A stretch of 64,000 nucleotides of DNA from GCF_055900595.2 NZ_CM148325.1, one strand, 5' to 3'; positions 1 to 52,750 are shown, numbered from the stretch's first letter. The notes: generated by a model not told the origin, from the sequence alone. Translations and numbers: made by a program.

Positions 1-149
1 CAAATTTAAAAGAAATTGCGGCAAAGTCAATACTTACAGATACAACGGTTTCAATTCCGATAACTGCCAGTTACTACGTCTACGATACAAATAAAATTAA
101 ATCTGGCGCACTGGAGGCAACCGCATTAATCAACGTGAAATACGACTAA
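1..149 (+). CDS. 3' end of a fimbrial-type protein gene (partial, start lies before the window); C-terminus ...TALINVKYD
   Basis: Open frame from window start to TAA at 147-149; position convergent with rcnB matches the yehA end of the yehDCBA fimbrial operon by synteny (inference). Confidence 0.45.
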   Translation, partial: NLKEIAAKSILTDTTVSIPITASYYVYDTNKIKSGALEATALINVKYD

Positions 150-205
150 TAACAAGCAAGACGAGCAAGTGGCTAATAATAAAAAATAACAAGGTGTCTG
201 CATTT

Positions 206-232
206 CCCCCTCATGATGAGGGGGCTTTTTTT
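206..232 (+). terminator. Rho-independent terminator between convergent fimbrial gene and rcnB
   Basis: Perfect palindrome ccccctcatgatgaggggg (206-224) followed by T-run 226-232. Confidence 0.6.
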
Positions 233-569
233 AGCGATGATAAAAAATCTCACCATCGTAGGCTTTAATGATTTTACCGTCGGTGTCGCTGATCAACACA
301 TACGCGCCACCCATATAGGTCCAGTGCGTCCCGGCATCAGGCGCGGGCAGGTTACGTAACTGCCACTGCTTAATGTTGTACTCATCGGTGCGGTACATCT
401 CTGGGACGGTATCGCCTGGTTTGAAATGCTTAAAGTCAGCAATGAAACTGCTTAACTCATACTTAGAAATTCCCGAGGTATTGGTCGAACCCGCGGTGGC
501 TGGTGCGGCCCAGGCGGCACTGGTAACCAGCAAAAGCGCACCCAGCAACATCTTATTTTTAATGGTCAT
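231..569 (-). CDS. rcnB: RcnB, periplasmic protein modulating Ni/Co efflux (112 aa)
   Basis: Internal ATG of ORF 231..749; product MTIKNKMLLGALLLVTSAAWA... has a signal peptide and matches recalled RcnB (YohN); sits immediately downstream of rcnA. Confidence 0.85.
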   Translation of the reverse strand: MTIKNKMLLGALLLVTSAAWAAPATAGSTNTSGISKYELSSFIADFKHFKPGDTVPEMYRTDEYNIKQWQLRNLPAPDAGTHWTYMGGAYVLISDTDGKIIKAYDGEIFYHR

Positions 570-773
570 ATACTCTCCACTTTGGGGATCTGTAATATCA
601 GTCGCATATCTTTCCTGCCATACAATATAACTGACAAGCGATATTTTGTTAGTGATCCCATGATTTCGTAAAAAGTGTAAATGAAAGGATGCCCTAAAAG
701 CATCCTTAGCGAGCAGAGAGCCAGCGGAAATAGCTGATTTAAGAATCATCCTGGGCTGAAGATAACATGCAGC

Positions 774-1595
774 CTATCGCATAATGCCCATAAAGCCATG
801 CACGCCCATATACACCCCAACTAAGCCAATCAACAGACTGGAAAAATAGGGGGCACGTTTAGCGAGAGTGTTAAATCCGCTCCAGCGTTTTGCGACCTGC
901 TGAACGCTGATTGCTGCGCCAACGCCTACGGTGACTAGCGTTAACGCCAGGCCAATGCTGAAACTGACGACCAGTGTTGCGCCTAGTGTCAGGGCTTTCA
1001 ACTGAATACAAATCAACAGCACGGTAATTGCTGCCGGGCAGGGGATCAGTCCACCTGTTAACCCAAACAATAAAATTTGCCAGTTGGTCACTTCTCTGCC
1101 ATTGAAGCGTCGTTTGATGTCATTGGCATGGGCTCGTGCATGAGCATCCTGATACTCCCCATGTTCGTGATGGTGATGATGTCCATGGTCGTGGTGATCT
1201 TCGTGATCGTGATGATACTCATGATCATGCCCGTGCATATTCTCCAGCCAGTTACGTTCGCCGCGCCAGGTACGCCAGAACATCCAGAACGCGGTGCCAA
1301 TAATGATCACCGCGGAAATCAACTGGAGCCACGGTTCTGCAGATTGAGCAGTAAAACGTTTGCTGATCACCATCCCGCCAAAGGCAATCAACCAGACCAC
1401 CGCGGTATGCGAAATGGTTGCTGCCAGTCCGAGCATCACCGCCTGTTTAATGGTGCCTTTGATGGCGATGATAAACGCCGCCATCATCGTTTTTGAGTGC
1501 CCTGGTTCCAGGCCATGAAGCGCACCAAGTAAGATGGCGCTGGGAATGAAGAACCAGGCGTTTCCTTGCTGAAGAAGAGTGGTAAATTCAGTCAT
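774..1595 (-). CDS. rcnA: RcnA nickel/cobalt efflux permease with His-rich loop
   Basis: 273-aa membrane protein with loop HGHDHEYHHDHEDHHDHGHHHHHEHG; divergent from rcnR. Confidence 0.93.
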   Translation of the reverse strand: MTEFTTLLQQGNAWFFIPSAILLGALHGLEPGHSKTMMAAFIIAIKGTIKQAVMLGLAATISHTAVVWLIAFGGMVISKRFTAQSAEPWLQLISAVIIIGTAFWMFWRTWRGERNWLENMHGHDHEYHHDHEDHHDHGHHHHHEHGEYQDAHARAHANDIKRRFNGREVTNWQILLFGLTGGLIPCPAAITVLLICIQLKALTLGATLVVSFSIGLALTLVTVGVGAAISVQQVAKRWSGFNTLAKRAPYFSSLLIGLVGVYMGVHGFMGIMR

Positions 1596-1632
1596 GATAA
1601 TAATTCTTAGTATTAATTCGACAATCTGATTC

Positions 1633-1667
1633 TACTCCCCCCCAGTACATGATACTACCCCCCAGTA
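1633..1667. promoter_or_regulatory. RcnR operator: two TACT-C6/7-AGTA sites in the rcnR-rcnA divergent promoter region
   Basis: tactcccccccagta at 1633-1647 and tactaccccccagta at 1653-1667; matches the known RcnR recognition pattern TACT-G6-N-AGTA read on the other strand. Confidence 0.8.
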
Positions 1668-1715
1668 GATTAATAGTGCTATGATTTTTCATGTTCTTGT
1701 TAACCAGGTGTTGCC

Positions 1716-1988
1716 ATGTCTCATACAATCCGTGATAAACAGAAACTGAAAGCGCGTGCCAGTAAGATTCAGGGCCAGGTCGTGGCGCTCAAGAAAATGC
1801 TCGACGAGCCGCACGAATGCGCAGCTGTTCTACAACAGATTGCTGCTATCCGTGGCGCGGTAAACGGCCTGATGCGCGAAGTGATTAAGGGGCATCTGAC
1901 GGAACACATCGTTCACCAGGGGGATGAGCTAAAACGTGAAGAAGATCTGGATGTCGTTCTGAAGGTGCTGGATTCTTATATCAAATGA
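1716..1988 (+). CDS. rcnR: RcnR, Ni/Co-responsive transcriptional repressor (CsoR/RcnR family, 90 aa)
   Basis: 90-aa [32 protein letters not shown]...; divergent from rcnA. Confidence 0.93.
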
Positions 1989-2058
1989 AAGTGCCTAATA
2001 TGGCCGTAGTTGAGGCAATAAATAGAGGGACAAGTGACGTTAAGCTGAATTAGAGTAA

Positions 2059-2082
2059 ATGGCGTGAGGACACACGCCATTC
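2059..2082. terminator. Hairpin (9-bp perfect stem aatggcgtg/cacgccatt) between rcnR and the island ORFs; possible bidirectional terminator
   Basis: Inverted repeat read directly from sequence; flanking T/A-rich tracts. Confidence 0.4.
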
Positions 2083-2097
2083 GAGGATATAGTTTGA

Positions 2098-2412
2098 TTA
2101 ATTTTCGAAAAATTGCTTCACAGCCCAGCCACCATGACCACCTGGAGTTATGAATGAAACAAAACCTTTGTCATCGACGCTCTGGATTTCTACTGTCATT
2201 GATTCATCTAACACGCGACATTTATTGGATGTAATGAGACTCAGCATAGCCTGTTGGTCATTGTCCTGAATGTAACTGATCATCTCGTAAAAGTCAGTTA
2301 ACTTTTTACAGTTAAATGTACCTTCTTTAAGTGTTGCGCTGTCTCCGTGACTTAGTGCGAATGCATTTGGCATCATTGCCACAAAGATGACGGTAACGAG
2401 TAGTTTTTTCAT
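2098..2412 (-). CDS. Hypothetical small secreted protein (104 aa, N-terminal signal peptide, 2 Cys in mature part)
   Basis: ORF MKKLLVTVIFVAMMPNAFALSHG...; AT-rich context; no recognised family. Confidence 0.6.
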   Translation of the reverse strand: MKKLLVTVIFVAMMPNAFALSHGDSATLKEGTFNCKKLTDFYEMISYIQDNDQQAMLSLITSNKCRVLDESMTVEIQSVDDKGFVSFITPGGHGGWAVKQFFEN

Positions 2413-2421
2413 TGTAGCCTC

Positions 2422-2769
2422 TTATAATTCAGAACATTCACTGATGTTGTAAGTGCCTTTTCTACCATCATCGTTTACGAGATGTAGCACGAAGATGATG
2501 GGATTGGCATCAATGAAAGATACAGAGACGTTCCCGCTTTCGGTGCTATACATCTTTGCAATCTGTTTTTCACCAATATATGAAAGATCCCAACTCACTC
2601 CGTTCAAGCTAAAATGCATCTGTTTGCCGTCAATATCGATGGAGGATTGTGCCGTAACGGTTTTCCCATTGCTGCCAATTTGACCCTGCTGAAGAGCATC
2701 ACATTTATAGGAGCTTGCATAAGTAAATAGAGGTAGTAGCAGAAGTGCAGCAAAAATTTTACTCTTCAT
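2422..2769 (-). CDS. Hypothetical small secreted protein (115 aa, signal peptide, 2 Cys)
   Basis: ORF MKSKIFAALLLLPLFTYASSYKC...; 10 bp upstream of the 104-aa ORF, likely co-transcribed. Confidence 0.6.
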   Translation of the reverse strand: MKSKIFAALLLLPLFTYASSYKCDALQQGQIGSNGKTVTAQSSIDIDGKQMHFSLNGVSWDLSYIGEKQIAKMYSTESGNVSVSFIDANPIIFVLHLVNDDGRKGTYNISECSEL

Positions 2770-3137
2770 ATTTTCCCTTTGCTTGGATTTGAGTTACCTA
2801 TTTTGGGGTAGTCATTATAAAACTATTAATTAGTAAAATGAACAAGTTTTCATTTGTTTAGTAATGGTATTGTTTAGGTTTGAAATTATTACGTACTTTC
2901 ATAGCAATAGGTTGGATAAACAGCAGTTCAGGGAACAAGTTGCACTATCTACATACTTTCCCGCTTTCCATTGTATGTTAGGTAATAGATAGCCTTTGCC
3001 CGTAAGACTAAAAATATTAGAAATGACTCATTCGAATACCTTCTATTCACCTTAATATAGGTTTGATTATTGTAATCGTTTAATGTGTCTTATGGATTTT
3101 TTCCTACTTTTCATTTGCATAATATAGGGGGCACAGC

Positions 3138-3257
3138 ATGCTCTTGAAATTAATTATTAAGATATTTAAATTTTACAGCACACAACTACTTTTCGTTGTC
3201 TTATGTGTTGAACGTACTTCGAGTATAGGTAGGGTTGTATATATATTGCGTGGGTAG
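3138..3257 (+). CDS. Candidate small hydrophobic peptide (39 aa, MLLKLIIKIFKFYSTQLLFVVLCVERTSSIGRVVYILRG)
   Basis: ATG preceded by aggggg about 8 nt upstream; very short, so coding status is uncertain. Confidence 0.2.
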   Translation: MLLKLIIKIFKFYSTQLLFVVLCVERTSSIGRVVYILRG

Positions 3258-3354
3258 AGTTAGAATAGAGGAGGCATCATTTATAGAATATTCAAGAACG
3301 TTAACCTGTGATCAATAAATAAAAATATCAAATGGTGTTCAAACATATTTTTCT

Positions 3355-3686
3355 ATGAAAAATCCAGCCATCTATGATGAATTTTTAGATCCATTTTAAT
3401 TAAAGTATGATTATGAACCAATATTTAGCCAAGAATGGTGGTATAGCGCGTATCCAATGACACCGGAAAACGCATCTATGAAGTCCTTGTTTATCTCTAT
3501 AAGAGGAAATCAACACTAATAAAATATAGTGATGTAACACATCGAGCAGGTTGCTCTGATGCTGGTCTTCAACTGTGGCTTAAACAGCTATCAAACTTCG
3601 GTGTTATTGAGATGAAAGAATTATCTTTCTCAACTTTCAATCTCAAAAAGCTAGAGGAAATAGACCTTAATTATTCCACTCTCTAA
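3355..3686 (+). pseudogene. Possible degraded gene: three consecutive +1-shifted open frames (MKNPAIYDEFLDPF / MIMNQYLAKNGGIARIQ / ...KRIYEVLVYLYKRKSTLIKYSDVTHRAGCSDAGLQLWLKQLSNFGVIEMKELSFSTFNLKKLEEIDLNYSTL)
   Basis: An ~80-codon stop-free frame in ~30% GC DNA lacking an ATG near its 5' end, preceded by two short ATG-initiated frames. Confidence 0.25.
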
Positions 3687-3822
3687 ACTTATCTCTTTAT
3701 TTAAAGTAAAAATGAAAATATTATGGTATCAGCTACGTGGTGGTAACTGGTGTTTATGATCATAGGTACACATATACAGGGAACCCTGGAAAACAAAAGT
3801 AATATATTGATGATTTCGTTTG

Positions 3823-4062
3823 TTATAACTTCGTGGTATCAAGTCCGGCGGCTTTGAGTCGCTCGGTAAGATTTCTCATTTTGCTGAACTCTGTACCAAA
3901 GCTGGCTTTAAGTCCTACACCTTCGCAAAACTCTTTTGCCGTGACGTTTTTAAGATGGTCAGCGTATTTGATCATCTGGAGGTGCATTTCCATCGTTTGG
4001 CTATTTCGTGGTGCGCTGCTAATGGCTTGCTTAATGTTCTCGTAGATCTGGGTTTCTGTCAT
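3823..4062 (-). CDS. Hypothetical protein (79 aa), family not recognised
   Basis: ORF MTETQIYENIKQAISSAPRNSQTMEMHLQMIKYADHLKNVTAKEF...; in AT-rich island. Confidence 0.5.
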   Translation of the reverse strand: MTETQIYENIKQAISSAPRNSQTMEMHLQMIKYADHLKNVTAKEFCEGVGLKASFGTEFSKMRNLTERLKAAGLDTTKL

Positions 4063-4282
4063 TTTTTATCTCACCTATCAAATTTAGATAAATAATATAA
4101 ATTAGATAAATAAGATAATCAATAGTTTTTACCATATGAATAATGGATGTGGATTGTTTCTTTTTCATTTCTGATATGGAGTACAAAATGGGGTCACAAT
4201 GAAGAAGCGATGAATGGAGGCGAGCTTGCATCTGCAAGCCTCTTCCCCTAATCTGGCACAAAATATAGAGATTCAACCAAAC

Positions 4283-4400
4283 GACTCGGGGTGCCCTTCT
4301 GCGTGAAGGCTGAGAAATACCCGTATCACCTGATCTGGATAATGCCAGCGTAGGGAAGTCACGGACCACCAGGTCATTGCTTCTTCACGTTATGGCAGGA
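4283..4400 (+). promoter_or_regulatory. TPP (THI-box) riboswitch in the thiM 5' leader
   Basis: Sequence ggggtgcccttctgcgtgaaggctgagaaatacccgtatcacctgatctggataatgccagcgtagggaa matches the classic thiM thiamine-pyrophosphate aptamer; directly upstream of thiM start. Confidence 0.92.
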
Positions 4401-4407
4401 GCAAACT

Positions 4408-5196
4408 ATGCAAGTCGACCTGCTGAGTTCCGCGCAATCTGCGCACGCGTTACACCTTTTTCACCAACATTCCCCTCTTGTGCATTGCATGACCAATGAT
4501 GTGGTGCAAACCTTTACTGCCAATACCTTGCTGGCGCTCGGTGCATCGCCAGCGATGGTTATCGAAACCGAAGAAGCCAGTCAGTTTGCGGCTATCGCCA
4601 GTGCCTTGCTAATTAACGTCGGCACGCTGACGCAGCCACGCGCACAGGCGATGCGTGCTGCCGTTGAACAGGCAACACACTCTCAAACCCCCTGGACGCT
4701 TGATCCGGTCGCGGTTGGCGCACTCGATTATCGTCGCCGTTTTTGTCATGAACTTTTATCTTTTAAACCGGCAGCGATACGTGGTAATGCTTCGGAAATC
4801 ATGGCATTAGCTGGCGTTGCTAATGGTGGACGGGGAGTGGACACCACTGACGCCGCAGCTAATGCGATACCCGCTGCACAAACACTGGCACGGGAAACTG
4901 GCGCAATCGTCGTGGTCACAGGCGAGGTGGATTATGTTACCGATGGTCGTCGCACCGTTGGCATTCACGGCGGCAATCCGTTAATGACCAAAGTGGTAGG
5001 AACTGGCTGTGCATTATCGGCAGTTGTCGCTGCCTGTTGTGCATTACCTGGCGATATGCTGGAAAATATCGCATCTGCCTGTCACTGGATGAAACAAGCC
5101 GGAGAACGCGCCGTCGCCAGAAGTGAAGGGCCTGGCAGTTTTGTTCCCCATTTTCTTGATGCGCTCTGGCAATTGACGCAGGAGGTGCAGGCGTGA
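4408..5196 (+). CDS. thiM: Hydroxyethylthiazole kinase
   Basis: 262-aa ORF; downstream of TPP riboswitch; overlaps thiD start. Confidence 0.95.
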
Positions 5197-5993
5197 AACG
5201 AATTAACGCTCTGACAATTGCAGGCACTGATCCCAGTGGTGGCGCAGGAATTCAGGCAGATCTCAAAACGTTCTCGGCACTTGGCGCTTATGGTTGCTCA
5301 GTGATTACTGCACTGGTGGCGCAAAATACCCGTGGCGTACAGTCGGTGTATCGCATTGAGCCTGATTTTGTCGCCGCCCAGCTCGATTCGGTGTTCAGCG
5401 ATGTGCGAATCGATACCACTAAAATCGGTATGTTGGCGGAAACTGATATTGTTGAAGCGGTGGCAGAACGGTTGCAACGTTATCAGATCCAAAACGTGGT
5501 GCTCGACACCGTTATGCTGGCAAAAAGCGGCGACCCGCTGCTTTCACCTTCGGCGGTTGCTACGCTGCGCAGTCGATTATTGCCACAGGTTTCATTAATA
5601 ACGCCAAACTTGCCCGAAGCAGCCGCCTTGCTCGACGCGCCACACGCGCGCAACGAACAGGAAATGCTGGAACAAGGGCGATCGCTGTTGGCGATGGGCT
5701 GTGGCGCAGTGCTAATGAAAGGTGGTCATCTGGATGATGAGCAAAGCCCGGACTGGCTGTTTACCCGCGAGGGTGAACAACGGTTTACCGCACCGCGCAT
5801 TATGACCCAAAACACCCACGGCACTGGTTGTACGCTCTCTGCGGCGTTGGCTGCACTGCGCCCGCGCCATACAAACTGGGCTGACACCGTACAGGAGGCA
5901 AAAAGCTGGCTTTCATCGGCATTAGCCCAGGCCGACACGCTGGAAGTTGGTCACGGTATTGGTCCGGTTCACCACTTCCACGCCTGGTGGTGA
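5193..5993 (+). CDS. thiD: Hydroxymethylpyrimidine/phosphomethylpyrimidine kinase (GTG start overlapping thiM stop)
   Basis: 266-aa [29 protein letters not shown]... Confidence 0.95.
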
Positions 5994-6057
5994 GCACCGT
6001 ACTATAGCTGCTTTGGTTATTGTCAGTCTTTGGCGCTGACATTCAGGGATGAAACCA

Positions 6058-6876
6058 ATGCAGCTGAGCATCACCAGTCGAAAAAAATTCACCGCTTTAT
6101 TATGCGCTCTTGGGCTAATTTCCATCGTTGCAATTTATCCGCGTCAGACGGTGAATTTTTTCTACTCGACAGCAATTCAGATTAAAGACTACATCCACTT
6201 CTACGGTTATCGTCCGGTCAAATCTTTTGCTATTCGCATTCCTGCCAGTTACACCATTCATGGTATTGATGTTTCACGCTGGCAGGAGCGAATCGACTGG
6301 CAGCGGGTGGCAAAAATGCGCGATAACGGTATTCGCTTGCAATTTGCCTTTATCAAGGCGACGGAGGGCGAAAAGCTGGTGGACCCCTATTTTTCGCGTA
6401 ACTGGCAACTAAGCCGCGAAAATGGCCTGCTGCGCGGGGCGTATCATTAATTCTCCCCGTCGGTATCCGCTTCAGTTCAGGCGCGATTATTTCTGCAAAC
6501 GGTGGATTTCTCACAAGGCGATTTCCCTGCCGTGCTGGACGTAGAAGAACGGGGAAAATTATCGGCAAAAGAATTACGCAAGCGGGTAAGTCAGTGGCTA
6601 AAAATGGTCGAAAAACGCACGGGAAAAAAGCCGATTATTTACTCAGGAGCCGTTTTTTATCACACGAATCTGGCGGGCTATTTCAATGAATATCCGTGGT
6701 GGGTGGCTCACTACTATCAACGTCGTCCGGACAATGACGGAATGGCCTGGCGCTTCTGGCAGCATTCCGACCGTGGACAGGTAGATGGCATTAATGGTCC
6801 GGTGGATTTTAATGTGTTTAATGGCACGGTGGAGGAGTTGCAGGCATTCGTTGATGGGATTAAAGAAACGCCTTAA
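6058..6876 (+). pseudogene. yegX: yegX (GH25 lysozyme-like) interrupted by an in-frame TAA at 6448-6450
   Basis: ORFs 6049..6450 and 6502..6876 are in the same frame (distance 453 = 151 codons); combined length about 272 aa matches recalled intact YegX. Confidence 0.7.
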
Positions 6877-6927
6877 ATAAGAAGCAGTGATATACTCCCA
6901 CCAGACTCCCTGGCAGGAAAAAGACAA

Positions 6928-7674
6928 ATGGAACAAGCGCATACCCAGCTGATTGCCCAACTGAACGAACGTATTTTAGCGGCGGATAACACGCCGCTTT
7001 ATATTAAGTTTGCCGAAACGGTGAAAAATGCCGTGCGCAGCGGGGTGCTGGAACATGGCAATATTTTACCCGGCGAGCGCGATTTAAGTCAGTTAACCGG
7101 CGTTTCGCGTATTACGGTGCGCAAGGCGATGCAGGCGCTGGAAGAAGAGGGCGTGGTGACACGTTCGCGCGGCTACGGCACGCAGATTAATAACATCTTT
7201 GAATACTCGTTAAAAGAAGCGCGAGGATTTTCTCAGCAGGTGGTGTTGCGCGGGAAAAAGCCCGATACGCTATGGGTTAACAAGCGAGTGGTTAAATGCC
7301 CTGAAGAGGTGGCGCAGCAATTGGCGGTCGAAGCGGGTAGTGATGTCTTTTTGCTTAAGCGTATTCGCTATGTTGATGAAGAAGCGGTCTCTATTGAGGA
7401 GTCGTGGGTTCCGGCGCATTTAATTCATGATGTTGATGCCATCGGAATCTCTCTTTATGACTACTTCCGCAGTCAGCATATTTTTCCAAAGCGTACCCGT
7501 TCCCGCGTTAGCGCCCGGATGCCGGATGCCGAGTTTCAGTCACATATTCAATTAGATAGTAAAATACCGGTGCTGGTGATCAAGCAAGTGGCGCTTGACC
7601 AACAGCAACGGCCTATTGAGTACAGCATCAGCCACTGTCGCAGTGATCTATACGTTTTTGTGTGTGAGGAGTAG
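6928..7674 (+). CDS. yegW: GntR/HutC-family transcriptional regulator
   Basis: 248-aa ORF with N-terminal wHTH region (LPGERDLSQLTGVSRITVRKAMQAL) and UTRA-like C-terminus. Confidence 0.88.
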   Translation: MEQAHTQLIAQLNERILAADNTPLYIKFAETVKNAVRSGVLEHGNILPGERDLSQLTGVSRITVRKAMQALEEEGVVTRSRGYGTQINNIFEYSLKEARGFSQQVVLRGKKPDTLWVNKRVVKCPEEVAQQLAVEAGSDVFLLKRIRYVDEEAVSIEESWVPAHLIHDVDAIGISLYDYFRSQHIFPKRTRSRVSARMPDAEFQSHIQLDSKIPVLVIKQVALDQQQRPIEYSISHCRSDLYVFVCEE

Positions 7675-8613
7675 TTCCTCGCGGGTTGGCGCGCAATCAC
7701 CGCCGCGATGCCCGACAACCCACGACGCCACTGCATTGCCCAGCAATACGGCATCCGCCAGTGGCAAACCAGAGGCCAGTCCAGCTAATACGCCACCTGC
7801 ATGACTGTCGCCCGCCCCAATGGTGTCTACAACTTGCGTTGGAAATGCCGGGATGCAGCCAGAAGCGTTATTGCTGAAATACCATGCGCCTTCTTTATCC
7901 AGACGAACGATCAACGGCGCGGCAAATTTCTCCTGCCATTGCTTGCCAAGTGTTGTTATCTCTGCTGATAAAGCAAAACGTTCGGCGGCAATCTCACCCT
8001 CCTGACGATTGAGTGACACTAAAGGTCGACAGGCCATGATTCGCGCCAGTAATGCATCCGGGATATCGCCAATACGTGGGCCAAAATCGATGAACGGCGT
8101 CACGTCTTGCAGACTCTCCAGCCATTCCACTAACAATTCACCGCAGGGCGAGGCCAGTTGATAACCGGAAAAATAGAGCAGGCTGCCAGGGGCAACGGTT
8201 AATCGCGCCAACCATTCGCGATTCCACTGATTTTCAACACCACTGAACGACATAAACGTGCGTTCACCATCAGGCTCAACCAGCGCCAGACACCAGCCGT
8301 TATCGCCTTCGGCGTTATCGATGAGGCTGATTAATCCTTCTTTCGCCATCCGGTTACGAATAATTTCCGCCCACACACCCTGGCCGAGCGGCAGGGCATT
8401 ACCCGCTTCGATACCGAGGCGCTTTAACGCCACGGCAATATTCAGTGCACAGCCGCCAACGTTAACGCTCTGCTGTTTCAGTTCGATATCGCACCCGCGC
8501 CAGGGCAGGGCATAAGCGTCGGCGATCACATCAATGACTGCCGCGCCAATCACCATAACCGGCTGACGCGTGGTTAATTCAGGCAGCAGCGTGTGTAATC
8601 GAGCGCCGCTCAT
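7648..8613 (-). CDS. yegV: PfkB/ribokinase-family sugar or nucleoside kinase
   Basis: 321-aa ORF with GAGDSHAGG motif; 3' end overlaps yegW 3' end by 27 bp. Confidence 0.88.
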   Translation of the reverse strand: MSGARLHTLLPELTTRQPVMVIGAAVIDVIADAYALPWRGCDIELKQQSVNVGGCALNIAVALKRLGIEAGNALPLGQGVWAEIIRNRMAKEGLISLIDNAEGDNGWCLALVEPDGERTFMSFSGVENQWNREWLARLTVAPGSLLYFSGYQLASPCGELLVEWLESLQDVTPFIDFGPRIGDIPDALLARIMACRPLVSLNRQEGEIAAERFALSAEITTLGKQWQEKFAAPLIVRLDKEGAWYFSNNASGCIPAFPTQVVDTIGAGDSHAGGVLAGLASGLPLADAVLLGNAVASWVVGHRGGDCAPTREELLLTHKNV

Positions 8614-9614
8614 GCCGCCTCCCGTTGTTGACGATACTTCGCCAGCGCCGTGGCGTAATGATTAAAATCAAGCTGATTTACCGCATCCAGTTCCGCCTTT
8701 AACGCAGGATCGATAGCGTTAACGCCATGCAACGCGCCGCAAATTGCCGTCGCCATAGCACCGATGGTGTCTGTGTCACCGCCAAGATTGGCGCACAGAA
8801 TGGCGCAACGGTTCGGGTCGGTTTGTGCTAGTTCAACCAGCGCAATGGCGCACGGAACGGACTCAATAGTACTGGTACCTGCCCCAACCACCTGATACAG
8901 CTGTTCGCTGGCGGATTCGGTGCCGTCGGCATTGCGCACAATTTTCAGCGCAATCTCCAGACGTGCTGCCAGTGAGGCGCTGAAGGTAGTGATGCGTTTT
9001 TGCTGTGCATGTCGCGCAATTGAAGGCAGTGAATCAACAATCGCTGACCAGCTTTCTCCGTCAATGGCACGAGAAATCGCCCATGCGATGACTACCGCGC
9101 CTGCCACCGCCAGATCGGATTTATGAGTCGGGCTGGACGCCAGCGCTACATCATCAATAAAGGAATCAACATCACGCGCCGGAAGCAAACAACCTAATGG
9201 CGAGACGCGCATCGCTGCGCCGTTGGTCACGCCATTGTTTTCCAGTTCAGCAACGGGTTTACCGTCGCGAATGGCGTTGAGAGCAATCTTCGAGGTCGGA
9301 CCTAGTACGTTTTTGTTAAAGGCGTCGAAACGCAGCGCCCAGTCGAGAATATTACGCCCAATCAGATCCGGATCGATCTCGCCTTCACGTTCCAGTAACG
9401 CATCCGCCAGACACAGCGCCATTGAGGTATCGTCGGTGAATTCGGCGCGGTTAAAATAACAGGCCGCGTTATTCTCCTTTGGGCCAGGCAAAAAACGGTC
9501 AATCCAGCCAAAGTGTGCTTTGACGCGGGAGCGTGGCCAAAGCTCGGACGGCATCCCCATCGCATCCCCTAACGCCTGCCCGTAAAGAGCACCGAGAATA
9601 CGTTCTGTTTTCAT
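8610..9614 (-). CDS. yegU: ADP-ribosylglycohydrolase-family protein
   Basis: 334-aa ORF; overlaps yegV and yegT by 4 nt (operon). Confidence 0.88.
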   Translation of the reverse strand: MKTERILGALYGQALGDAMGMPSELWPRSRVKAHFGWIDRFLPGPKENNAACYFNRAEFTDDTSMALCLADALLEREGEIDPDLIGRNILDWALRFDAFNKNVLGPTSKIALNAIRDGKPVAELENNGVTNGAAMRVSPLGCLLPARDVDSFIDDVALASSPTHKSDLAVAGAVVIAWAISRAIDGESWSAIVDSLPSIARHAQQKRITTFSASLAARLEIALKIVRNADGTESASEQLYQVVGAGTSTIESVPCAIALVELAQTDPNRCAILCANLGGDTDTIGAMATAICGALHGVNAIDPALKAELDAVNQLDFNHYATALAKYRQQREAA

Positions 9615-34200: not shown

Positions 34201-34400
34201 ACATCCGGGCTGGCGCCAGGGTAGAGCGTGACCACCTGAATGGTCGGATAGTCCACTTCCGGCAGCGCCGAAACGGGCAGGGCGCGATATCCGATAATCC
34301 CGGCGAGTAAGATCGCCACCATCAGCAGCGTGGTGGCAACAGGACGCATAATAAACAGGCGCGACGGACCGCCTGTGCTGCTCGGGGGTAACACCTGCAT
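31278..34400 (-). CDS. mdtB: RND multidrug efflux permease MdtB
   Basis: 1040-aa RND protein. Confidence 0.95.
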
Positions 34401-35647
34401 CAGGAGCGTGCTCCTTTTTTCGCGTATTCGCGGCTGGTGGCTTTCTCTTCCGAAGTGGTGGCGCTCTGGGCTTCCACTACTTCCACTTTCGCCCCTTCGG
34501 TCAGGCGATCAATGCCGTCTGTCACTACGCGGTCGCCCGCAGAAATACCTGCGCGGATAACCACTTTCTCACTGTCCTGAATGCCCGGCGTCACCAGATG
34601 TTTGCTGACCTTGTTTTCGCTATTCAGCACCCAGACAAAATGGCCTTCATTGCCCATTTGCAGGGCGGCAGTTGGGATCACCACGGCGTTTTGTTCGGTG
34701 TCGACTAACATACGCGCGTTAACAAACTGATTGGGAAACAGTGCATCATCCTGATTATTAAAGCGTGCTTTCACTTTAATCGTACCGGTAGTGGCATCGA
34801 TTTGGTTATCGAGACTTAACAGCGTGCCTTCACTTAATTTCTTCGAGTTGGTGCGATCCCAGGCTTCTACCACCAGCGGTTTTCCGGCTTTTTGCGCCTG
34901 CACAACGGTAGCGATATCGCTTTCCGGCAGGGTAAAGACTAAATCGATAGGGTGCGTCTGGGTGATCACCACAATCCCGGTGGTATCACCACTGGAGATT
35001 TGGTTACCAACATCAACCTGCTTGAGACCAACGCGACCATCGACTGGCGCGGTGATGCGGCTCCAGTCGAGTTGCAGCTGTGCGCTGGCGACGCTTGCTT
35101 CATCAGCCTTAATGGTGCCTTCGGTTTCACTGACCAGCGCCTGTTGGGCATCCAGTTCCTGACGGGAGACGAGATTGGTTTTTGCCAGTTGCTGATAACG
35201 CGCTAAATCACGGCGGGCGTTGGCAAGCGTGGCTTTATCTTTTGCCAGTTGGCCCTGGGCTTGTGCTAATGCAACTTTGAACTGGCTGGGGTCAATTTCT
35301 GCCAGTAAATCGCCTGCTTTGACCTGCTGACCCTCCTGGAAATGTAATGCCATCAGTTGACCATCTACGCGACTGCGCACCGTAACGGTGTTAGCAGCGG
35401 TAATCGTACCAAGCCCGGTGAGGTAACGCGGAACTGCCTGTTCTACGGCTGTCGCCGCCTGAACCGGGGCTAATGGGCCGGAACGCATACCACGGCGACC
35501 ACCCGCTGGCGATTGCTGCGCTTGCTTCGTCGCACCTGGCGCTGCGCTCTGGGATTCATTGCGGCCTTGCCAGAACCAGAAAGCGGCGATGGCGGCGATA
35601 ACCACCACGATTACGATTACCCAACGGGATTTATTACTGCCTTTCAT
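34400..35647 (-). CDS. mdtA: RND membrane fusion (periplasmic adaptor) protein MdtA
   Basis: Start at internal ATG ([16 protein letters not shown]...), 415 aa. Confidence 0.9.
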
Positions 35648-35700
35648 CGTTAAGAGTTTCTCTTCCTGAAACGTTTCGCGGAATGATACTAGTGTAGCCA

Positions 35701-35718
35701 GCCAATAAGGGAGAAAAA
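35701..35718 (-). promoter_or_regulatory. Candidate BaeR box upstream of mdtA
   Basis: Minus-strand tttttctcccttattggc matches recalled BaeR consensus TTTTTCTCCATDATTGGC at 17 of 18 positions. Confidence 0.65.
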
Positions 35719-35864
35719 TGGAGGAATTATGAAACACTGTCGGGAATCGTCTGAATGGCAGGCACTTTTGCGAGCACGCATCCAGTAATAACACAGGAAA
35801 CTATTTTATCTGCGCGTTAGCGATAGACTGCATTCAGGGCAAAAGGAGGTAGGCCGACGATTTC

Positions 35865-36005
35865 AGCGGGACGCTGAAACGGGAAAGCCCCTCCCGAGGA
35901 AGGGGCCTTAAATAAGGAAAGGGTCATGATGAAGTGGATCATCATCGTGGTGCTCTTAGTCGTTAGCTACCCAGCTTACTAAGACTACCAGGGCGGGGGA
36001 AACCC
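35865..36005 (-). ncRNA. sib: Sib-family antisense sRNA (antitoxin), copy 1; boundaries approximate
   Basis: Inferred from known Sib/Ibs architecture; terminator-like hairpin aagcccctcccgaggaaggggcctt at 35885-35908. Confidence 0.5.
35926..35982 (+). CDS. ibs: Ibs-family type I toxin peptide (MMKWIIIVVLLVVSYPAY)
   Basis: Matches Ibs peptide pattern; RBS aaggaaagg upstream. Confidence 0.8.
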   Translation: MMKWIIIVVLLVVSYPAY

Positions 36006-36189
36006 CGCTCAACCCTCACTCCTGAAAATATGCCTTCACGGTCAGAATGTCAATCCGCAGGCTTTGCAGTCTGCGATCCTGCCAGCAAATATTCTTTGCG
36101 AGTCGTTACGCAATAATCACAGATGAAACTATTTTATCTACGCGTTAGCGATAGACTGCATTCAGGGCAAAAGGAGGTAGGCCGACGAT

Positions 36190-36335
36190 TTCAGCGGGAC
36201 GCTGAAACGGGAAAGCCCCTCCCGAGGAAGGGGCCTTAAATAAGGAAAGGGTCATGATGAAGCTACTCATCATCGTGGTGCTCTTAGTCATTAGCTTACC
36301 GGCTTACTAAGACTACCAGGGCGGGGGAAACCCCG
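36190..36335 (-). ncRNA. sib: Sib-family antisense sRNA, copy 2; boundaries approximate
   Basis: Inferred from repeat architecture. Confidence 0.5.
36254..36310 (+). CDS. ibs: Ibs-family type I toxin peptide (MMKLLIIVVLLVISLPAY)
   Basis: Second repeat unit. Confidence 0.8.
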   Translation: MMKLLIIVVLLVISLPAY

Positions 36336-36519
36336 CTCTACCCTCACTCCTGAAAGTATGCTTTCACAATCAGATTGTCAATCCGCAGGCTTTGTAGTCT
36401 GCGATCCTGCCAGCAAATATTCTTTGCGAGACGTTACGCAATAATCACATGTGAAACTATTTTATCTGCAAGTTAGCGATAGACTGCTTGCATGGCGAAA
36501 GGAGGTAGGCCGCCGATTT

Positions 36520-36665
36520 CAGCGGGACGCTGAAACGGGAAAGCCCCTCCCGAGGAAGGGGCCTTAAATAAGGAAAGGGTCATGATGAAGCTACTCATCA
36601 TCGTGGTGCTCTTAGTTATTAGCTGGCCAGCTTACTAAGACTACCAGGGCGGGGGGAAACCCCGC
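36520..36665 (-). ncRNA. sib: Sib-family antisense sRNA, copy 3; boundaries approximate
   Basis: Inferred from repeat architecture. Confidence 0.5.
36582..36638 (+). CDS. ibs: Ibs-family type I toxin peptide (MMKLLIIVVLLVISWPAY)
   Basis: Third repeat unit. Confidence 0.8.
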   Translation: MMKLLIIVVLLVISWPAY

Positions 36666-36856
36666 TCTACCCTCACTCCTGAAGTTATGTTACTCCACCC
36701 TTATTGTCAATCTGTAAGTCCACGTTCTTGCGGGGCGAATAGCAAAACCCTCTGCGCTTATGGGCCGAATTCTGAAAGTTGCTTTGCCTGCTCTTATTTC
36801 ATTGTTGCAGTCGGTATGATACCGGACCTCAATAATTCTCTAAGAAAGGATTTCTT

Positions 36857-37516
36857 ATGAGCGAACAAATCACGTTTGCCACCAGCGATTTTGCCAGTAA
36901 CCCGGAACCACGTTGCCCCTGCATTTTGCTGTTGGATGTTTCTGGTTCGATGAGTGGTAGACCTATTAATGAACTTAACGCCGGATTGGTTGCCTTTCGC
37001 GATGAGCTGCTTGCCGATTCGCTGGCTTTAAAAAGAGTGGAACTCGGTATTGTGACGTTCGGCCCGGTGCATGTGGAACAACCATTTACCAGCGCCGCTA
37101 ATTTTTTCCCGCCCATCCTGTTTGCCCAGGGCGATACACCAATGGGGGCCGCCATTACCAAAGCCCTGGATATGGTTGAGGAGCGCAAACGTGAGTATCG
37201 AGCCAATGGTATTTCCTATTATCGTCCGTGGATTTTCCTGATTACCGATGGCGCACCAACCGATGAGTGGCAGGCTGCTGCCAACAAGGTGTTTCAGGGG
37301 GAAGAAGATAAGAAGTTTGCCTTCTTTTCCATCGGTGTTCAGGGGGCGGATATGAAGACGCTGGCCCAAATCAGCGTTCGTCAGCCTTTGCCTCTTCAAG
37401 GATTACAATTCCGCGAACTGTTTAGCTGGTTATCCAGTTCGCTGCGTTCGGTTTCCCGCTCCACGCCGGGAACGGAAGTTGTACTGGAAGCGCCAAAAGG
37501 CTGGACGTCAGTGTGA
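36857..37516 (+). CDS. yegL: von Willebrand factor A (vWA) domain protein
   Basis: 219-aa ORF with MIDAS motif DVSGSMSG. Confidence 0.88.
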
Positions 37517-38274
37517 GCTGGCGTCTGGTTTATGCATCAGCCGTTGGAACGTCGCACATCAGCGCTGACTTGTCTTGCCAGGATGCCTGCCAGATGCAGG
37601 TTGCCTGGCTAGAAGACCAGCAGCCATTATTGTCGGTATTTGTCGCTGATGGCGCAGGCAGCGTCTCGCAGGGAGGCGAAGGTGCGAAGCTTGCCGTCAA
37701 TGAAGCGATGGCTTATATATCGCAAAAAGTGCAGGGTGGGGAATTGGAGCTTAATGATGTCCTCGCCACGGATATTGTACTGACTATTCGTCAGCGACTT
37801 TTTGCCGAGGCAGAGGCCAAAGAATTAGCGGTTCGTGATTTTGCCTGCACATTTCTGGGACTGATTTCATCACCTAACGGCACATTGATTATGCAGATTG
37901 GCGATGGTGGCGTGGTGGTAGATTTGGGGCACGGTCTGCAATTGCCGCTCACGCCGATGGTGGGTGAATATGCCAACATGACGCATTTCATTACCGATGA
38001 AGATGCCGTTTCCAGACTGGAAATTTTCACCAGCACTGAGCGTGCGCATAGAGTTGCAGCATTTACGGATGGTATTCAGAGACTGGCGTTAAATATGCTG
38101 GATAATTCTCCGCATGTGCCTTTCTTTACCCCGTTTTTCAATGGACTGGCGTCAGCAACGCAGGAACAACTCGATTTATTACCTGAATTGTTAAAGCAGT
38201 TTTTGTCCAGCCCGGCGGTAAACGAGCGTACGGATGATGATAAAACGTTGGCACTGGCGCTGTGGACAGAATGA
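37513..38274 (+). CDS. yegK: PP2C-family Ser/Thr phosphatase (GTG start overlapping yegL stop)
   Basis: 253-aa [10 protein letters not shown] motif. Confidence 0.85.
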
Positions 38275-52270: not shown

Positions 52271-52738
52271 AGTAAGTACAAAACCTATTCGTTGTATGAC
52301 AAATGTCACAATTCGATCATGGATAAATCGGGGCAAAAATGCAATGTTGCAGCACTATTTATCTCATATTATTTGAGGTTTATAACCTCACATTATCCCT
52401 GAATTAAAAGTGGTAATAATAAAACATTATTTAAGAAATATCGCATGTGGAGACACTATATTAAATATTGTCAACCTAAAGAAACTCCTAAAAACCATAT
52501 TGAATGACACTTAATATAATTCTTAAAAATAGCCAATTGCCGAATTGTTACCTTGCCTGCTATTCCGTTAGCTGTAACACTTCCTCCTGCATTATGGGAA
52601 GCCAATATTCAATTACCATAATGCCACCTTATATCTGGAAAATTAATTCACGGAATAACGCTTTTTCATAATCAACTGCATGATGAAAGAGTTAGAAAAT
52701 CTAAACTAAATCAGTGTATTGGTAGCTAAAAAGCCAGG

Positions 52739-52750
52739 GGCGGTAGCGTG
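52739..52750 (+). promoter_or_regulatory. ops element (GGCGGTAGCGTG) in JUMPStart, RfaH recruitment site in the wza leader
   Basis: Exact ops consensus GGCGGTAGnnTG about 180 nt upstream of wza. Confidence 0.85.

Follow-up and report, generated by a model that had tools for sequence, protein, structure and literature searches.

Two tandem ibs/sib toxin-antitoxin units separate mdtA from yegL in E. coli K-12, and the question raised by the locus described here is whether a third unit at the same place is a peculiarity of this strain. An original prediction, made from the sequence of the window (the whole 64,000-nucleotide stretch of DNA that was analysed), claimed three tandem ibs/sib type I units between the two genes and regarded one of them as an extra copy with diverged C-terminal residues. 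Our analyses indicate, with a probability of about 0.9, that what is seen here is the chromosomal sibA/sibB locus in an ordinary allelic form, made of three tandem, apparently intact modules which are all of the IbsB/SibB type.

Anatomy of the mdtA-yegL array

A repeat search of the window located three direct repeats in the mdtA-yegL gap, arranged in register over positions 35767-36722 with a measured period of 328 bp, in agreement with the predicted value of about 330 bp (Table 1). Over 300 nt, copy 2 showed about 91-92% and copy 3 75% identity to copy 1, far above chance, and the pairwise divergence among the three units was 8-25%. Each unit carries an ibs open reading frame on the + strand and a match to the Rfam family SIB_RNA (RF00113) on the - strand; the three matches covered model positions 1-147, i.e. 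the full model, with scores well beyond the gathering score of 56 bits. Repeats, ORFs and Rfam matches were therefore in agreement, confirming both the three tandem units and the presence of an antisense Sib RNA opposite each ibs. The site is one of the conserved Sib loci of E. coli, mdtA-yegL being the sibA/sibB locus, and the anatomy of the array and its family membership are thus demonstrated.

The array and its flanks (34448-38056, 3,609 bp) were 100% identical to the corresponding region of E. coli M160133 (NZ_CP022164.1; urine, New York), from which the window differed at only 3 sites between positions 12836 and 64000. Thirty-six SNPs clustered at 12307-12835, and over positions 1-12300 the identity to M160133 was 95-96%; the annotation coordinates of this genome were applied from 12302 onward only. 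The same segment, 1-12300, was 100% identical to E400634, E500002, E600003, AST85, Z0117EC0005, E200086, 100117 and 100248. The window is thus not M160133 along its whole length, and its source is a close relative of both groups. Z0117EC0005, E500002 and E200086 are isolates from Korea, India and Mali. The entire 64 kb showed about 95-96% identity to K-12.

Table 1. Coordinates of the features of the ibs/sib array and its flanks, numbered from the first letter of the window.
Feature	Position	Strand	Description and basis
mdtA	34400-35647	-	left flank
Repeat copy 1	35767-36066		300 nt
Repeat copy 2	36095-36394		300 nt
Repeat copy 3	36423-36722		300 nt
Repeat unit 1	35767-36094		mdtA-proximal; repeat-finding and 93-96% identity to first-position units of other strains
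Repeat unit 2	36095-36422		middle; 93-94% identity to K-12 sibB and to middle units of other arrays
Repeat unit 3	36423-36722		yegL-proximal, chimera; alignment with HD12480 units 3 and 4, ST131 unit 2 and the K-12 ibsA unit
ibs ORF 1	35926-35982	+	18 aa, MMKWIIIVVLLVVSYPAY; read from sequence; PGAP WP_224219350.1
ibs ORF 2	36254-36310	+	18 aa, MMKLLIIVVLLVISLPAY; read from sequence; PGAP WP_103054298.1, 'Ibs family toxin'
ibs ORF 3	36582-36638	+	18 aa, MMKLLIIVVLLVISWPAY; read from sequence; PGAP WP_100249772.1
Sib RNA 1	35882-36017	-	136 nt; ends by homology to K-12 SibB, 92.6% identity to SibB; Rfam match
Sib RNA 2	36210-36345	-	136 nt; alignment to K-12 SibA-E; 97.1% identity to K-12 SibB
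Sib RNA 3	36538-36674	-	137 nt, with an additional C in the P2 loop; 94.9% identity to K-12 SibB
RF00113 match 1	35911-36053	-	136.1 bits
RF00113 match 2	36239-36381	-	139.6 bits
RF00113 match 3	36567-36710	-	136.1 bits
sib1 promoter	36025-36053	-	TTGACA-17-TATTTT, 7 nt before the inferred +1; promoter scan, 10/12 matches
sib2 promoter (putative)	36353-36381	-	TTGACA-17-TACTTT, hexamers those of K-12 sibB; by homology; below the consensus-scan threshold
sib3 promoter (putative)	36682-36710	-	TTGACA-17-TAACTT; by homology; absent from consensus-scan output
Sib1 terminator hairpin (putative)	35885-35909	-	GGCCCCUUCC-UCGG-GGAGGGGCU, then UUCC; predicted fold and K-12 SibB end point
Sib2 terminator hairpin equivalent (putative)	36213-36237	-	
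Sib3 terminator hairpin equivalent (putative)	36541-36565	-	
Crossover stretch	35970-35999 = 36626-36655		30 bp identical in units 1 and 3; recombinant reconstruction
yegL	36857-37516	+	right flank

Ibs peptides

The three 18-aa sequences read from the ORFs agreed exactly with those originally predicted. In the identical M160133 sequence all three ORFs are named 'type I toxin-antitoxin system Ibs family toxin' by PGAP/RefSeq, the start of ORF 1 being placed at the second ATG. An Ibs peptide is characterised by MM followed by a basic residue at position 3, by a core of hydrophobic residues that includes a conserved Leu, and by an aromatic C-terminal residue. This signature was recognised in all three peptides, which have in common the MMK start, L10-L11 and the C-terminal PAY. 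Each ORF is preceded by AAGGAAAGGGTC, and the SD-like motif AAGGA is present in all three.

None of the three peptides is identical to K-12 IbsB (MMKLLIIVVLLVISFPAY), residue 15 being Y, L or W instead of F, with the additional occurrence of W4, I5 and V13 in unit 1. The peptide of ORF 3 is the same as the third-unit peptide of the HD12480 four-unit array. When 23 IbsB-type units from 9 genomes were compared, only residues 4 (W/L/I), 5 (I/L/F), 13 (V/I) and 15 (Y/L/W/F) were found to vary, in 11 combinations; the remaining residues, including K3 and L10-L11, were invariant, and no frameshift or stop occurred among the 23 units. The divergence of C-terminal residues that had been predicted was thus real for residues 13 and 15 but was not solely C-terminal, since residues 4 and 5 vary too. 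In Salmonella, the activity of IbsA requires the basic residue 3 and Leu11, while other alanine substitutions keep toxicity (bioRxiv 10.1101/2025.05.26.656083). As K3 and L10-L11, which match these essential residues, are conserved, the peptide variants encoded here would be expected to remain toxic.

Sib RNAs and their signals

The ends of the Sib RNAs were set by aligning the antisense strands with the annotated K-12 SibA-E. The three RNAs showed 92.6-97.1% identity to SibB versus 78-82% to SibA and, being closer to the former, were all assigned to the SibB type. Each is predicted to adopt the multi-hairpin Sib shape, with minimum free energies of -61.8 kcal/mol (z -4.75) for Sib1, -59.3 (z -4.47) for Sib2 and -60.4 (z -4.45) for Sib3. 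In all three units the ibs ORF and its ribosome-binding site lie wholly within the Sib RNA of the opposite strand.

The three predicted sib promoters share the register of the K-12 sibA and sibB promoters, with the same 7-nt distance to the inferred start. A generic consensus promoter and terminator scan of the array recovered one of the three sib promoters and none of the terminators, the latter because of the short U-tract; the sib2 and sib3 promoters and the Sib terminators are accordingly proposed by homology. The region upstream of ibs is nearly identical to that of K-12. It held no convincing candidate for a sigma-70 promoter of ibs, and a promoter is assumed there from the conservation with K-12.

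Differences among the units fall mostly in predicted Sib hairpin loops

Alignment of Sib1-3 confined their differences to RNA positions 7, 18, 45, 48, 49, 56, 57 and 80-83, whereas the 3' 53 nt, TRD2 included, were identical in all three units and Sib2 and Sib3 had 79 contiguous identical nucleotides. According to the predicted fold, positions 45-57 correspond to the apical loop, closing pair and internal loop of the TRD1 hairpin (+46 to +68 in SibC) and positions 80-83 to the apical loop of the hairpin corresponding to P6. Unpaired nucleotides account for eight of the 10 substituted positions in this fold, with a hypergeometric P of about 0.001, the sites not being independent. The TRD1-loop nucleotides differ among all three units, while the P6 loop distinguishes unit 1 from units 2 and 3, and the same loop hot spots recur across the 23 B-type units from 9 genomes.

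On the coding strand the variable TRD1/P5 loop falls on ibs codons 12-16 and the P6 loop on codons 4-5. The peptide differences at residues 4, 5, 13 and 15 thus appear, on the modelled fold, to be the coding-strand image of the variation of these two Sib loops. Since the loop positions map to codons 12-16, the "diverged C-terminal residues" would be the protein-level image of TRD1-loop variation.

Proposed mechanism and cross-repression

The mechanism of the Sib/ibs family has been established in K-12, where a translation block is accompanied by RNase III processing of the duplex (PMC4147584), and the locus described here would be expected to work in the same way. We infer expression, toxicity, repression and cross-talk of the three units as follows. 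In each unit, a sigma-70 promoter (TTGACA-17-TAnnTT) would drive the synthesis of an RNA of about 136 nt from the - strand, perfectly complementary to the entire ibs ORF and ribosome-binding site on the + strand. Sib, made constitutively, would pair with the ibs mRNA through TRD1 and TRD2, blocking ribosome binding and translation and exposing the duplex to RNase III, so that no peptide would be produced as long as Sib is present. An unrepressed 18-aa Ibs would insert into the inner membrane and lower membrane potential and ATP. The IbsA peptide of Salmonella binds subunits a and b of Fo (bioRxiv 10.1101/2025.05.26.656083).

The two recognition domains, TRD1, which lies inside the ORF, and TRD2, which covers the translation-initiation region, act independently and lie in hypervariable regions (Han et al. 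2010, PMC2943612). In SibC either domain alone is enough for repression, and a TRD swap retargets SibC to ibsD (PMC2943612). As the three units do not differ in TRD2 or its flanks, and either SibC TRD suffices, extrapolation from the SibC/SibD experiments favours cross-repression over strict insulation, and the three Sib RNAs probably repress each other's targets. The opposite arrangement, in which each Sib represses its own ibs only and the array works as three independent switches, would agree with the cognate-only repression of the five K-12 pairs, whose TRDs lie in variable regions (Han et al. 2010, PMC2943612), and with the loop differences among the units reported above. It is nevertheless the less likely of the two, as the invariant 3' 53 nt include the region pairing with the translation-initiation site, and the 79-nt stretch common to Sib2 and Sib3 should be read together with the sufficiency of a single TRD in SibC.

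Three B-type units and a chimeric terminal unit

The composition of the array was then compared with that of other strains. The usual three-unit array has the layout B-B-A, with ibsA adjoining yegL, and four-unit arrays are B-B-B-A. In the window, ibsA/sibA, consisting of the 19-aa peptide MMKHVIILVILLVISFQAY and the SibA body, is absent from all three units, so that none of them belongs to the IbsA/SibA subtype. Alignment of unit 3 showed a B-type ibs/Sib body joined to the terminal (sibA-type) sib promoter and spacer: the sib3 promoter spacer ATAAGGGTGGAGTAACA resembles that of sibA, and from the sib promoter onward the unit tracks terminal-unit sequence, as does ST131 unit 2. This allele keeps three B-type units, the ibsA/sibA body having been either lost or never possessed.

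Besides M160133, the B-B-B layout occurs in eight near relatives (97-98% identity), while ibsA was present in every other three-unit row of the systematic samples. A restriction of the layout to these nine genomes was ruled out by a longer query, which found it also in 2017.06.05CC, LHM10-1 and CP52E, i.e. in other backgrounds and with different unit orders. B-B-B is a minority layout and not a new kind of array.

The chimeric origin of unit 3 is among the observations that would fit decay, a reading in which one or more units are non-functional relics and the whole would amount to one or two modules. The -10 hexamer of the candidate sib3 promoter, TAACTT, is the weakest of the three (TAATTT, as in terminal units, or TACTTT is seen elsewhere), the annotation of K-12 IbsB as a toxic peptide is no more than 'putative', and the loss of two units is tolerated by the relatives described below. 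We consider such decay rather improbable. The three ORFs are intact, with their SD-like AAGGA, K3, L10-L11 and C-terminal PAY, each Sib RNA aligns to the full length of the covariance model and retains the putative terminator hairpin, and the variation of the 23 units, restricted to loops and free of frameshifts and stops, points to constraint rather than decay.

Unit number across E. coli

In order to evaluate how common a three-unit locus is, complete E. coli genomes were searched with the 5' flanks of mdtA and yegL, fused directly into a single query; the two pieces are reported as one place only if they are no more than L/2 + 500 bp apart in the record. The number of units was deduced from the mdtA-yegL spacing, calibrated on directly read loci that showed gaps of 553-559 bp for one unit, 880-899 bp for two, 1209-1216 bp for three and 1544 bp for four. 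Across four thresholds, 5,416-5,422 genomes (about 5,420) had a flank match, and the cumulative number of genomes joined was 89 at 720 bp, 2,308 at 1050 bp, 4,481 at 1380 bp and 5,106 at 1700 bp.

These values correspond to one unit in 89 genomes (1.6%), two in 2,219 (41%), three in 2,173 (40%) and four in 625 (11.5%), with 316 genomes (5.8%) past the four-unit spacing; IS insertions shift these spacing classes, and the genome collection is skewed to clinical clones. Evenly spaced row samples were consistent with the census fractions. Of the long-spaced genomes, 169/316 join at 2,700 bp, and the sampled cases were IS insertions (IS150 in HUM3355, IS421 in E400634 and E600003); the spacing census demonstrated no array of five or more units, the 316 long-spaced genomes including IS insertions. 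At least 52% of complete genomes carry three or more units by spacing. Three units occur in O157:H7, O104:H4, O111:H8, O121 and O103:H2. The literature reports seven Ibs genes in O157 Sakai and discusses ibs-sib duplications (Fozo et al. 2010, PMC2887945), and K-12 MG1655 has five copies of the ibs/sib locus (PMC4147584).

Population frequency is thus demonstrated, and three units represent one of the two commonest states of the locus and no strain peculiarity. Direct reading of MG1655 confirmed that K-12 has two units here, sibB/ibsB and sibA/ibsA. The possibility raised in the original prediction, that K-12 and most strains would also have three, was borne out in part: three units are found in 40% of genomes, but K-12 itself has two, as do 41%. 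The claim of an extra copy did not survive the census, nor the composition of the array, which has no ibsA and is not that of K-12 plus one. A strain-specific gain of one unit over a normal two-unit locus would fit the two-unit state of MG1655, ST131 and other B2 strains; it is very unlikely given the frequencies above and the absence of ibsA, and the change seen within the lineage runs in the opposite direction.

A 656-bp deletion in close relatives

Relatives with flanks identical to the window carry one unit. All deletions of two units (656 bp) that the window could undergo were reconstructed and compared with these relatives. Removal of exactly 656 bp from the window gave a sequence without a single mismatch to Z0117EC0005 (1,853 bp compared) or to E500002 and E200086 (2,953 bp compared for each); the exchange was assigned to the 30-bp crossover stretch common to units 1 and 3 (Table 1). 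The predicted 2,953-bp span was found in at least six genomes, three of which were compared base by base. The recombination product is therefore demonstrated, and the prediction of copy-number change by unequal recombination was upheld by three relatives which are exact deletion derivatives.

Since unit 2 cannot be restored from one hybrid unit, the three-unit array is the older state in this lineage, from which the relatives have lost two units. More generally, the number of units (one to four, or more) and their order change when the 328-bp repeats undergo unequal homologous recombination or gene conversion.

Tandem repeats are notoriously prone to misassembly, and the original prediction had named an expanded or collapsed repeat as a possible flaw; the chance of such an artefact is negligible here, as the same 3,609 bp occur in the complete genome of M160133, the three-unit, ibsA-less layout was recovered, with 97-98% identity, in no fewer than eight further assemblies produced independently by laboratories in different countries, and units that differ at 8-25% of positions are easily resolved, reads being placed uniquely.

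Comparison with known systems

The closest known counterpart is K-12 sibB/ibsB (b4437/b4668), which is alike in locus, orientation relative to mdtA, 18-codon ORF, promoter architecture and putative terminator, but is present there as one unit versus three in the window. With K-12 sibA/ibsA (b4436/b4667), unit 3 has in common the yegL-adjacent position, the sibA-type promoter spacer and the downstream spacer to yegL, whereas the 19-aa ORF and the SibA body do not occur here and Sib3 is 81.5% identical to SibA. The B-B-A arrays of the O157:H7 type have the same locus, 328-bp period and unit number, with about 92% identity overall, but end in ibsA/sibA instead of a B-type unit. The two-unit arrays of ST131 and other B2 strains are also without ibsA and end in the same kind of terminal chimera, unit 3 of the window sharing 92% identity with unit 2 of ST131; these arrays are shorter by one unit and carry the peptide variants W4I5...F15 and L4L5...Y15. 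Among other families, ldr/rdl and zorO-orzO/zorP-orzP likewise consist of a small hydrophobic toxin and a small-RNA antitoxin, duplicated in one intergenic region with strain-variable copy number (PMC2887945). Their sequences are unrelated, and their antitoxins pair with the 5' UTR, whereas Sib covers the entire ORF and the translation-initiation region.

Significance

Earlier publications describe the module, its duplication in tandem and its differences between strains, and RefSeq already lists the three toxins; as a discovery the array matters little, and the useful results are corrective and descriptive. The two-unit locus of K-12 is not the E. coli norm, two and three units being equally common and four not rare, and ibsA is dispensable at the mdtA-yegL locus in whole lineages. 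The relatives provide a clean natural deletion from three units to one, mapped to a 30-bp crossover window. Anyone testing these "toxin variants" should consider that the peptide variation coincides with the specificity loops of Sib.

A broader, still doubtful possibility is that the mdtA-yegL array acts as a recombination-driven cassette system. Crossing-over and conversion would shuffle the units, diversification would be focused on the TRD1/P5 and P6 loops with the variable toxin residues being largely by-products of selection on the RNA, and the invariant TRD2 would cross-protect, so that the gain or loss of a unit is not lethal. If this cassette reading were true, the locus would offer a natural setting in which to test the emergence of new orthogonal antisense pairs.

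Divergence and mosaic structure of the window

Comparison of the full 64-kb window with K-12 returned an identity of only about 95-96%, and single 2-kb bins lay between 90.8% and 98.1%. Nearly all of the 5,422 complete E. coli genomes matched in the mdtA-yegL spacing census were 94-96% identical to the window in the mdtA and yegL flanks, and only about 10 reached 99% or more. Either the lineage is divergent, or this level of identity reflects the high polymorphism of the sequence around the colanic-acid/O-antigen region.

When set against database genomes, the window appeared as a mosaic. A group of eight genomes (E400634, E500002, E600003, AST85, Z0117EC0005, E200086, 100117 and 100248) matched positions 1-12300 at 100% identity. 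M160133, a complete E. coli genome carrying an identical three-unit ibs/sib array, showed only 95-96% identity over this part; from 12836 to 64000, 3 sites differed from M160133. A cluster of 36 SNPs relative to the same genome was located within 12307-12835, close to fbaB-gatY and the REP-like naRNA4 element, and the pattern looks like a recombination breakpoint.

Two segments of the window are missing from K-12. The first is a 2.3-kb insert, also missing from M160133, with rcnR on one side and the thiM TPP riboswitch on the other. Its two small ORFs are annotated in Z0117EC0005 as "outer membrane protein" and "hypothetical protein" and are accompanied there by an HTH-like fragment. The second, of about 1.6 kb, occupies the interval from trhP (yegQ) to yegP and codes for a HEAT repeat domain protein that is whole in M160133 and broken into two in Z0117EC0005. 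These segments are listed below together with other features, among them further Rfam matches that exceeded the gathering score.

Coordinates of features in the window and in two related mdtA-yegL loci
Feature	Position	Strand	Remarks
Insert	1987-4273		2.3 kb
Small ORF, 104 aa	2098-2412	-	Signal-peptide-like N-terminus
Small ORF, 115 aa	2422-2769	-	Signal-peptide-like N-terminus
TPP riboswitch	4277-4373	+	Rfam; upstream of thiM
naRNA4	12228-12298	+	Rfam; REP-derived
CyaR sRNA	20895-20980	-	Rfam
HEAT repeat segment	22516-24118		About 1.6 kb
Perfect hairpin, unit 1	35861-35879		Equivalent place in units 2 and 3
Unit-1 toxin	35926-35982		
JUMPstart element	52712-52750	+	Rfam; upstream of wza
IS421, E400634	1615-2727 of locus extract L021		Directly after single unit
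IS421, E600003	1615-2727 of locus extract L022		Directly after single unit

The ibs/sib region in the window and in database records

In some strains, IS elements were found inserted into the ibs/sib intergenic region. Besides the two IS421 copies, IS150 is present in HUM3355, where the gap of 2,333 bp corresponds to a two-unit gap plus the element. The record NZ_CP026085.1, labelled "DH5alpha", has a length of 4.83 Mb and bears a three-unit array in the order B-B-A (two IbsB/SibB-type units and one IbsA/SibA-type unit), in contrast to the two-unit locus of K-12 MG1655. The record probably carries a wrong label or comes from a strain outside the K-12 lineage.

The start chosen by PGAP for the unit-1 toxin varies between records of an identical ORF, the second ATG being used in M160133, RMDEC465, E200086, E400634 and E600003, which gives a product of 17 aa (WP_224219350.1), against 18 aa (WP_100733666.1) in Z0117EC0005, E500002 and R32_14_1F.

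The hairpin TTTCAGCG-GGA-CGCTGAAA is kept in every unit and in K-12. On the minus strand it is positioned just 3' of the Sib terminator, and on the plus strand it falls within the ibs 5' region. A longer form of Sib is on record (PMC4147584), and the hairpin may represent the end point of this longer form or, alternatively, a structure of the ibs 5' UTR.
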